A stretch of DNA of 12,685 nucleotides from a virus (taxonomy: Duplodnaviria; Heunggongvirae; Uroviricota; Caudoviricetes): the IMG/VR virus record IMGVR_UViG_2634166457_000024, positions 1 to 12,685 of that record. One strand, 5' to 3'. The position numbers are program-made. Shown here one piece after another: positions 3,001-6,000 of this stretch (positions are counted from its first letter, which is position 1; every line of letters starts with the position of its first letter).

Positions 3001-6000
3001 CTTTCGTAACGCGCATTTATGATTTCCTGCAGGATGGTTATCTCTGTAGGCGTGCCGAACTGCACACCAACCTCATCGATGATCAGCAGGTCCAGTGAGG
3101 CGAAATGAGCGAGAACTTCATCCTCGGTACGCTCTGAATTGTGGCGCCAGGTATTTTTCACAGCGCGGGTCAGTCGCATAACATCCGTAATTTCGACGGT
3201 CGCCTGGTGGTGGCGAATAATATTTTTTGCCATTGATACAGCCAGATGATTTTTCCCGGTACCACAATTGCCAATCATGACCATGCTGGTACCCGCAGCA
3301 AGACACTTCTCCCATGAACCGGCATAGCGCCGACAAGCCTCAAGATTTCTCTGTGCGTCAGCATTCACCGCCTGATAATTCTCAAACTCGCAGTTCTGGA
3401 AGCGGCGGGCAATACCAGCCCTGTCGAGTAATTCATGAACTTTCAGGATGCGTAACGCCTCCTGTACCTGATCCAGCTCATTCGCAATGCAGGTCGGGCA
3501 ACCAGACACCCGTTTGATGGTTTCCCCACGAACATCTGGCCCTTTCAACACCAGACGTGTGTATTTCCCGTGTTTCTCACACTCAGCAGTATCCTCGCTT
3601 GTCAGCCAGTGTTCACAGCGCCACGGACGCTTCCCGACACGGGCAAACTGCATCTCCTCCTCCAGTTCCGCCCTGCGGTTGAGCAATTGCGCTTTGTCGT
3701 GTTGTGCGTAGTGTTTTTTTAACTGTTCAAACATTGTTCATCACCTCGAAAAATCACCAGTTGAAGTTCGTTGAACCGTAGTCCTGCTCACTGAATCCCG
3801 AGATCGGGAGGCCGGTAGTTCGCCCACCTCCGGGAGCGGCTGGCTGTTGCCAAGATTCCTCGAAGTGACGATCGGGTCCAAAGAACGTCGCAGCCTGCTT
3901 CACGAACTGTGTGCCGATATTTCCGGTAGCTCGTACCCAGGCGGCATACCGCTTCACGCCATCAAGCATGGTCTCCGGTTTTATTCCCTCCCTGATACGG
4001 GCTTTCCAGGCTTTGAAGGCTGCTGACTTGGAATTGCCACCAGCACGTTTGGGGTATTCCTGCCAGGCCTGTTCAGATTCCGGTGAATATTCCTGTCGGG
4101 CAGAACGCGCTGGTGCAGACGCGTCAGCGGATGCGCCAATAGTTGATTCATTGACTGGTTCTTTGACTGGTTCAAAAGAGTGACTGGTTCTGGGTGAATC
4201 TCCTGCACTACCCCCTGGTGCAACTCTTGCACCACCTGGTGAATTTGCTGCACTAGGTAGTGAATTATTTGCACTACCACCTGGTGAATCTTTTGCACCA
4301 TCAAGACGAAGAAGATAAATATTGCTCGAGTTGCCTTTTTCACCTTTCCGGGAAACTTTTTTTACCAGTCCCGATTCACAAAGAGCCGTAATATGATTCA
4401 TCACAGAACGTTTGCTAATCTCGCACTGATCAGCAATATGCTGATAGCTGGGCCAGCACTCGCCCTGATCGCTGGCATTATCAGCCAGCTTAATCAGAAC
4501 CAGTTTTCGCAACGGATTTCCCACGCGAATTTTCATCGCTTTCACCATCAGCTCCATGCTCATAACACACCTCCCAGGCGTTTAAACATTTTCCCGGACT
4601 GAAACACTGCCAGTGGATAGCTAAGGGTATGAGTGCGTCCCTGAACCTGACAGACAACCTTCTGGCTTTCTGTATTGACCAGACAAACCCGCAGAACGTG
4701 ACCGTTGCTGATGGTGAACCACTGCCCCACACAGGGGCAACGGTTGTATCGGTGATACAGGGAATTAACGACGCGGCGAATCATGGGTGCACCTCCCATT
4801 GATTACGGCGGAAAGCGGTGTGACTGAGGCTGATTTCTGCCTCATGGAATGCTTCAATGCAGCTCTCGTAGTACCGCATTGTGCGCAGACTTAACCCAAG
4901 CTGAAGCATCATCAGACCATCAAGGGTGATGTAATAACCATGCAGAGAATCACCATAGATGTGATAAGTACCCGGTATGAAATTGCGGATAAAAAATTCG
5001 CGCGAGCAGTTCAGATACTCGATTTTGTCGACGATGTTCTGGTGCATGCGCTTGAAATGACAGGCAACATGCAGAGAGAAAATAACGGCCTTGCCGTTGA
5101 CGGATTCGATTTTCAGGTATGGGGAAGTTGGGACTGTAGCCATGATGGCAGCCTCCGTATGCAATGGATAACTTCCACCACCGGAAACGCCAATTTCGCT
5201 GGTGGTGAACTGAGCAGGGTTGGCGTAACCGGCGCATACGGAAACCGGCGCACCTTTCGGTGCCCCCACCCAGCCCACCATAATTTGGGTATAGCTGAGT
5301 TGTAGCAACAAAAAAGACGCTAACGCGCCAATTGTCGCCGTATGCAATTCCAGGACGCCAATCCCGGCACCCGCTTTATAAGGTGCCTGAACAGTGTAAC
5401 GTCCCGAAATTGCAGAATCAATATTTAGGCTTGAAACATTCATATGCTTACTGGTATTTTTGTTGACGTTCTTGGATTCTTGGGCCTGCTTTATGCAGTT
5501 GCCTGTATCAACGTTGAGCGAGCCGGGTCACTACCCGGCTTTTTTTCACCGCTGCCAACCAATAACCTGAAATAACCCCATTTTCGGGTGATACCAGCGA
5601 GTCCCTCGCGGTTCTGCTTCCTCCATAACCCGATAAAAAGCAGCCATAAACGGTTCCACAGCAACAATTGCGCGACGTGATAACAATCCGTCCGGCGTCA
5701 TAAACTCGTGGGTATCTGTAGGAAGTTGATAAGCGTTCACCAGATTGCGGCATTTATCATCTGACAAACCGGTTTTTGCTTTCAGCTGGCGATATCCGGC
5801 ATAGCCCTCACGAATGTTGCCCTTTTTGATTTGCTCAACTGTTTCGGCAACATGGCTGACTTTTTCTTCCACCTGAGTGATCCGTTTCTGCTGACGAACG
5901 GCTTCAAGAGCCATCGCTGCAACCATTTCGATTTCGCTCATTGGCTTACGGATCTGTTCTTCCAGTTCGCGCCAGCGATCTACCAGGCGAGCAGTGAATT

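Follow-up and report, generated by a model that had tools for sequence, protein, structure and literature searches.

Here we describe a segment of DNA that is probably the replication origin of a lambdoid prophage and that lies inside the initiator gene of that prophage. The DNA analyzed, referred to below as the window, is a stretch of 12,685 nucleotides from a virus of the Caudoviricetes (IMG/VR record IMGVR_UViG_2634166457_000024, positions 1 to 12,685). Within it, positions 4140-4325 fall in the linker-coding part of the initiator gene and carry five dyad repeats, or iterons, followed by a head-to-tail array of short GAACC boxes. Because its layout matches that of the annotated lambda origin, we read this segment as the phage origin, with a probability of roughly 0.78. 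The sequences show the anatomy, its uniqueness in the genome, its conservation in about 90 relatives, selection on DNA rather than on protein, and the co-variation of iterons with the recognition helix; binding, melting, helicase loading and origin activity are inferred. The parts of the gene and of the segment are as follows.

3754..4563, minus strand: replication initiator gene, 269 codons (open reading frame and translation, Pfam, PHROG)
4300..4563, minus strand: winged-helix DNA-binding domain, codons 1-88 (AlphaFold, predicted local distance difference test score [pLDDT] about 90; Foldseek)
4300..4325, minus strand: AT-rich flank upstream of the iterons, AATATTTATCTTCTTCGTCTTGAT, GC 0.35-0.40, a possible alternative opening site (least-stable 40-bp interval)
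4283..4299, minus strand: iteron 1, GGTGCAAAAGATTCACC (repeat search and pattern scan, as for iterons 2-5)
4259..4275, minus strand: iteron 2, AGTGCAAATAATTCACT
4238..4254, minus strand: iteron 3, AGTGCAGCAAATTCACC
4217..4233, minus strand: iteron 4, GGTGCAAGAGTTGCACC, nearly palindromic, so that either strand matches
4193..4209, minus strand: iteron 5, AGTGCAGGAGATTCACC, which abuts the GAACC-box array
4140..4192, minus strand: GAACC-box array, CAGAACCAGTCAC TCTTTT GAACCAGTCAAA GAACCAGTCAAT GAATCAACTA, the proposed place where the DNA unwinds and the helicase enters (pattern, stability, conservation)
4115..4128, no strand assigned: GC-rich imperfect palindrome, GCAGACGCGTCAGC, adjoining the box array (repeat and dyad search)

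The larger repeats (family B) were found by repeat search as five 23-nucleotide units with plus-strand starts at 4186, 4210, 4231, 4252 and 4276, which gives spacings of 24, 21, 21 and 24 bp. Each holds a 17-bp dyad core that reads (G/A)GTGCA-N5-TT(C/G)AC(C/T) on the coding (minus) strand and has the general form GTGMA-N5-TKCAC. When the window was scanned for RGTGCA-N5-TTSACY with at most one mismatch, only these five sites were returned from the 12.7 kb, and none of 200 shuffles reached five. The iteron pattern also has only five sites in the complete 41-kb genome of the related phage PhiR49_2, all of them inside the initiator gene (0 of 100 shuffles), and no second origin-like iteron cluster was found elsewhere in that genome.

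The short repeats (family A) consist of three exact GAACCAGTCA boxes at 4181-4190, 4164-4173 and 4152-4161 and a fourth, degenerate box (GAATCAACTA) at 4140-4149, all on the minus strand. There is no other copy of the exact box in the window, and the box pattern has no occurrence outside this place in the related 41-kb phage. A sequence-only reading of the window had reported three short direct repeats and five units of 21-24 bp with internal dyads, and both families are present where it placed them, inside the initiator gene on the minus strand. It had taken the two together as one iteron array and had named tandem-repeat analysis as a check. Tandem Repeats Finder, run on this region, recovered family A only (period 12); it missed family B because the copies are too divergent, and these were found by repeat and pattern scans. 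Family B can be kept as the iterons. Family A, as described below, is a separate, near-invariant DNA element.

The box array has a GC content of 0.35. The two least-stable 40-bp intervals of the gene, centered on 4304 (the lowest) and 4158, bracket the iterons, and the GC-rich imperfect palindrome follows the boxes. Across the family, this minimum of stability falls on the boxes in 39 of 88 loci; another 27 of the 88 have it a little upstream of the iterons. In lambda, a palindrome is also present beyond the AT-rich region. Three features of a lambda-type intragenic origin were found here: at least three dyad repeats of 17-19 bp about two turns apart, a location in the linker, and an adjoining low-stability segment. 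The order of DNA-binding domain, iterons about two turns apart and lower-stability segment is that of lambda, and the sequence-only reading, which had likened the arrangement to lambda, is supported in every part that could be checked.

The initiator comprises an N-terminal winged helix, a low-complexity disordered linker and a C-terminal domain. In the AlphaFold model, residues 1-88 form a confident winged helix, with the recognition helix at residues 51-64 and the wing at 67-85, and residues 91-135 are disordered with pLDDT below 50. By its PHROG match, the C-terminal domain begins at about residue 133. The repeats and boxes encode residues ~89-138 (DGAKDSPGGSANNSLPSAANSPGGARVAPGGSAGDSPRTSHSFEPVKEPVNES), that is, the interdomain linker, as had been proposed. 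An overlapping 120-residue open reading frame (3981..4343, minus strand) reads the same repeat DNA in another frame (..IHQVVVQIIHYLVQQIHQVVQELHQGVVQEIHPEPVTLLNQ..) and is a by-product of the repeats rather than a gene, again as proposed; other lineages read single repeats in this frame within the initiator itself.

The N-terminus of the initiator matches HTH_36 (PF13730; E value 2.5e-11, 43.6 bits against a cut-off of 25), with a weak DnaD_N match also in Pfam, and the whole protein matches PHROG 270, "replication initiation protein", at 2.8e-86. The C-terminal part matches PHROG 1701, and this domain is also present in PHROG families that bear the names "DnaD-like helicase loader" and "primosomal protein". 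By its HTH_36 and PHROG 270 matches and its early-right operon position before DnaC-like and DnaB-like genes, the gene at 3754-4563 is a phage replication initiator. Structural comparison of the N-terminal domain by Foldseek returned generic winged-helix proteins, including DnaD-N and plasmid RepA-N, with no specific initiator homolog among the matches. A phmmer search of the initiator against the PDB gave no match, and no NCBIfam model matched it. The gene had been called "O-like". An initiator gene with intragenic repeats is indeed present; the lambda O family (Phage_rep_O, PF04492) gave no Pfam match at E ≤ 0.01, BLASTP against lambda O gave nothing meaningful, and a profile of the family, compared with lambda O by hhalign, scored a probability of 1.9%, so that by these comparisons the protein is not detectably a member of that family. 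A published HHpred analysis links the lambda O N-terminus to HTH_36 (PMC5509034).

We sampled relatives by the 88-residue N-terminal domain alone, regardless of repeats. One sample consisted of tblastn matches to phages of E. coli, Salmonella, Klebsiella, Pectobacterium, Vibrio, Stenotrophomonas, Pseudomonas, Arthrobacter and Bifidobacterium; the other was a pattern search with the N-terminal alignment, which gave 80 prophage loci over a wide range of Gammaproteobacteria. The anchor motif is present in 90 of 91 loci, the window included. Absence of the repeats from homologous initiator genes had been named as the observation that would speak against an origin, and 88 of the 90 homologs carry three to seven repeats at the same place (five copies in 43 loci, four in 32). 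Of 314 intervals between repeats, 292 measure 21-24 bp. In 62 of 90 loci the iterons of the linker are not all in the same reading frame, with a typical spacing of 23 + 22 bp; in one linker, a unit is read as G-S-A-x-x-S-P in one copy and V-V-Q-x-I-H-Q in the next. After the conserved N-terminal domain, every lineage has a repeat-rich low-complexity stretch, the amino acids of which are wholly different between lineages. Given that frames vary within linkers and that disorder is predicted for the peptide, selection on the iterons acts at the level of DNA and not of protein.

Several loci show variants of this layout. Klebsiella phage 1 LV-2017 (1125-1262), a distant relative whose N-terminal domain is 33% identical, carries seven repeats of 15 bp (TGACGCGTCAAAATC) with a spacing of 15 bp and two GATCC(R)TCAG boxes after them, a differently phased variant of the same plan. 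Pseudomonas bharatica and Erwinia tracheiphila loci (gene nucleotides ~320-400) have a 1-nucleotide frame change before the boxes and end ...HPEPVTLLNQ*, which leaves products of 118-133 residues with the DNA-binding domain and linker only; these truncated initiators could reflect prophage decay or be natural origin-blocking fragments. Of the database proteins listed as matches to the N-terminal domain (P0001-P0120), most are labeled "partial", with a length of 90-160 residues and an end within the linker. The iteron array seems to interrupt assemblies, so that in draft genomes the gene is often fragmented.

The sequence of the iterons changes with that of the recognition helix. The following pairs were found.

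helix x-R-S-V/A-M/I-x-H with repeat GTG[CA]A-N5-T[GT]CAC
helix R-T/S-A/V-M-R-H with repeat GTGACA..TGTCAC
helix S-K-S-A-V-K/R-x-H with repeat TGTGCC/TATGCC..GCAC
helix D-R-S-T-V-R-K/R-H with repeat TGTAGGCCCAGAAAGCAC
helix S-K-T-S-V-R-N-H with repeat TATGGCAGGAAATGGCA
helix S-R-S-T-V-K-S-H with repeat GGGGCAGGAGCTGCCCC

Asn or Gln at position 56 occurs with GTGMA in the window, in Pseudomonas and Enterobacter prophages, in Pseudomonas phage MD8 and in Arthrobacter phage Abidatro. Arg56 occurs with GTGACA in Vibrio phage D290, Aliivibrio and Erwinia prophages, Vibrio phage 1.236.O and Bifidobacterium phage PMBT6. Such a pairing is what direct readout by the winged helix would predict, and it lends indirect support to specific binding of the repeats by the initiator.

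The boxes are unchanged between iteron classes. In all relatives they lie directly after the last iteron as two to four head-to-tail copies of GAACC(A)GTCA or GAACCrTC in one orientation, and CCAGAACCAGTCAC-TCTTTT-GAACCAGTCAA is almost letter-perfect over the sampled Gammaproteobacterial hosts, including high-GC Pseudomonas. Even there the rare AGA codon in the boxes is retained. At identical degenerate residues, codon identity is 0.98 in the boxes (a 12-codon stretch) against 0.38 in the N-terminal domain, measured over 2,429 locus pairs with N-terminal domains at most 80% identical. The peptide encoded after the repeats is near-invariant (P/T-R-T-S-H-S-F-E-P-V-x-E-P), and C-terminal domains diverge again beyond it. 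The same DNA is read in another frame in Shewanella (H-P-E-P-V-T) and in Aliivibrio, the latter with a spacing of 12 + 14 bp, and mEp021 and mEp010 have boxes of the form AATCAGTCA..AACCAGTAA. Distant members keep the boxes as GAACC(R)TC at 11-13 bp spacing, with four copies in Abidatro (in three reading frames), four in MD8, three in Vibrio 1.236.O and two in PMBT6. Box spacing is 12, 15 or 17 bp in Gammaproteobacteria and 11-13 bp in Arthrobacter, Bifidobacterium and MD8. The hosts span ~40% to more than 60% GC and different phyla.

Because of the near-invariant codons and the reading in other frames in some lineages, the box array is under selection at the DNA level. Conservation of the RTSHSFEPVKEP peptide as protein was considered and rejected, as some lineages translate the same DNA in other frames. 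Family A is therefore better described as a lineage-independent, nearly invariant DNA element than as a second kind of iteron. When viral contigs were scanned for the boxes, this initiator family was upstream in 112 of 112 with enough upstream sequence, a figure that, the contigs having been selected on the motif, speaks to the association of the boxes with the gene family and not to their conservation.

We propose that dimers of the N-terminal winged helix would bind the five dyad iterons (GTGMA-N5-TKCAC). With a spacing of 21-24 bp, or about two helical turns, the iterons would lie on one face of the DNA and could form a wrapped nucleoprotein complex like the lambda O-some. The resulting strain would open a low-stability flank. 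The favored site is the head-to-tail GAACC boxes directly downstream, because the constraint on their sequence far exceeds what mere AT-richness would need. The reader of the boxes, which probably acts strand-specifically or as an oligomer, would be either a conserved part of the initiator or a replication factor that is universal. Next, the C-terminal domain, which is related to DnaD/DnaT-type primosomal proteins, would recruit the DnaC-like loader of the phage together with the DnaB-like helicase.

Several candidates for the reader of the boxes were weighed. No DnaA boxes were found near the array and there is no enrichment of them, the nearest being at 3154 and 7291; given this absence, a contribution from host DnaA seems neither needed nor supported. 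Sites for IHF or Fis were rejected as an explanation of the boxes, since the consensus matches, judged by eye, are partial and fall within the spacer, which is less conserved. That actinobacterial phages have the boxes too argues against a host factor specific to Gammaproteobacteria. As the boxes are independent of iteron class, cross phyla and run head-to-tail at about one per helical turn, the reader may be a surface that is invariant in the initiator, or else a universal component of the replisome, possibly acting on single-stranded DNA. On this basis we suggest, at somewhat less than even odds, that the GAACC array is a previously undescribed origin element of HTH_36-type phage initiators, recognized sequence-specifically and with a role like that of DnaA-trios or 13-mers.

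Some observations weigh against reading the segment as an origin of this kind. Salmonella phage SI8, a P22-like phage from irrigation water, and one Ca. Phlomobacter prophage remnant have the boxes but a single dyad iteron; in SI8, GGGGCAGGAGCTGACCCC occurs once (gene nucleotides ~290-310), compared with three copies in Min27. One iteron plus boxes may suffice, or these elements may replicate otherwise. The co-variation of helix and iteron is not corrected for phylogeny, though the same pairs appear again in phages of unrelated host phyla. Either flank may be the opening site, because the boxes have no more than a moderate AT content (GAACCAGTCA is 50% GC) and the upstream flank is equally unstable in the window. 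A reader of the invariant boxes is hard to name, because both the C-terminal domains (DnaT/DnaD-like and others) and the downstream helicase genes (DnaB-like, primase-helicases, P-like) differ among relatives. Finally, the support as a whole is computational, and binding, melting and autonomous replication are predictions from it.

Three other explanations of the repeats were considered, and none of them covers the whole pattern. The repeats might be regulatory sites for the initiator, either an autoregulatory roadblock for the dnaC/dnaB-like genes or a means of titration and incompatibility, with the true origin elsewhere. Early-right transcription does run through the array, which is placed before the helicase genes. 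Iterons of iteron plasmids also act in copy control and incompatibility. Plasmids that carry fragments of lambda ori are reported to inhibit homologous phages (PMC3349717). We nevertheless think this unlikely: complete PhiR49_2 offers no other iteron cluster, the invariant combination of iterons, phased boxes and low-stability flanks is needed by an origin and not by a roadblock, and lambda provides a precedent for both roles at one site.

The box segment could instead be kept as a recombination joint between an N-terminal/iteron module and a C-terminal/helicase module, and not as a working part of an origin. Relatives differ in C-terminal domain and downstream genes from exactly the end of the boxes onward, and a shared 30-bp identity would favor homologous exchange. 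This explains how the segment is used and not why it is maintained; near-invariance across GC range, phyla, frames and spacings points instead to selection on each box. The two roles are also compatible, since a functional conserved element becomes a crossover point, and maintenance as a joint alone seems quite improbable. Least probable is that the repeats arose by slippage and serve only a flexible Gly/Ser/Pro-rich linker with no cis-acting DNA role: the segment does encode a low-complexity, predicted-disordered linker and copy number does vary from three to seven between relatives, yet the dyad units hold their phasing while the frame shifts (which largely refutes the idea), linker peptides differ entirely between lineages as the DNA repeat tracks the recognition helix, synonymous sites in the boxes are nearly invariant, and the Abidatro boxes fall in three different frames.

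The operon is the early-right operon of a lambdoid prophage, with Rha/Ash-type regulator genes upstream of the initiator and, downstream of it, a DnaC/IstB-like loader, a DnaB-family helicase, RusA and a Q antiterminator. The two genes closest to the proposed mechanism are given below.

2844..3734, minus strand: DnaC/IstB-like helicase loader, the presumed partner of the initiator (profile matches)
1447..2886, minus strand: DnaB-family replicative helicase, the presumed cargo at the origin (profile matches)

The immunity region is separated from the replication genes by two Rha-family regulator genes (4781-5443 and 5546-6295, minus strand), of which one carries an Ash domain, an arrangement that matches one reported for some "Eru" types of Stx phages. 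A 79-residue open reading frame at 4560-4799 (minus strand) overlaps the initiator start codon by 4 nucleotides and matches PHROG 1153, to which no function is assigned, at 1.6e-39. SfV (orf38), mEp460 and PhiR49_2 have this reading frame conserved before the initiator as well.

The records closest to the window are phages PhiR49_2 and phiP27, at ~91% identity over two thirds of it. In phiP27 (1647-3462, compared with 2844-4563 of the window), an unrelated 308-residue "hypothetical protein" (L17) replaces the initiator, the DnaC-like and helicase genes are kept, and the sequence is ~91% identical to the window on both sides of the exchanged gene. Because phiP27 has a different gene at the initiator position, the region is mosaic, and the difference amounts to a clean exchange of the module formed by initiator and origin.

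Prophages with the segment occur in about a fifth of complete E. coli genomes (1,090 of 5,426), where it is annotated only as a helix-turn-helix domain-containing protein. The module also occurs in several replication types of Shiga-toxin phages, in which the level of replication affects toxin output. A known origin would allow origin and incompatibility typing of prophages and rational construction of replicons, as well as a direct test of how a non-lambda-O initiator hands a helicase over to DNA. The boxes and the helix/iteron code can be put as hypotheses that assign origin specificity to the variable element and opening to the invariant one. If both the box element and the residue-56 code hold true, this family would be a tractable, programmable model of origin recognition and melting.

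Among known systems, the closest likeness is to lambda ori in O (and to P22 gene 18 and phi80/82), where the origin is likewise inside the initiator gene, in its linker-coding part, in the early-right operon and before the genes for helicase recruitment. Lambda has four to five dyad repeats of 17-19 bp about two turns apart, as here, with spacings of 20, 24 and 23 bp compared with 24, 21, 21 and 24 bp in the window; the iteron sequences are unrelated. Downstream of the lambda iterons is a lower-stability A/T-rich tract, whereas the window has the phased GAACC-box array in place of an A-rich tract. The partners also differ, being P and host DnaB in lambda and DnaC-like and DnaB-like phage proteins here.

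Iteron plasmids (RK2 oriV/TrfA, F/RepE, pSC101) and oriC share with this segment a winged-helix initiator and direct repeats beside short head-to-tail repeats (13-mers, DnaA-trios). The initiators of iteron plasmids and oriC bind the repeats of the unwinding element in single-stranded form. Unlike the plasmid proteins, the initiator described here has a single winged helix and no Rep_3 match in Pfam, its origin is intragenic with no DnaA boxes nearby, which sets it apart from plasmid Rep/oriV, and its short repeats are GAACC boxes and not AT-rich 13-mers.

The same protein family is found in the "Eru" modules of Shiga-toxin phages with HTH_36 (Eru5/6/8/11/13; the Eru6 reference is Stx2a_WGPS2), in SfV orf39 and in mEp460. 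Stx2a_WGPS2, SfV and mEp460 match the gene at ~86% DNA identity and have the same five iterons and boxes. The Eru papers classify genes only and mention neither iterons nor an origin (PMC8044961, with no occurrence of "iteron" in its text; PMC8951638). We found no description of these repeats, the box motif or the origin in the accessible literature; an older remark in a subscription article, such as the SfV genome paper, is possible.

DopC of Cellvibrionales and Oceanospirillales has the same domain pairing as the initiator (HTH_36 with DnaT_C; PMC5509034). The dopC gene is without iteron-like sequences, and its authors conclude that no origin was retained (PMC5509034); the phage gene, by contrast, keeps both iterons and boxes. 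An origin within the initiator gene is ordinary and lambda-like. What is new in this case is the different initiator family, and the invariant, frame-independent GAACC array that stands beside lineage-specific iterons.

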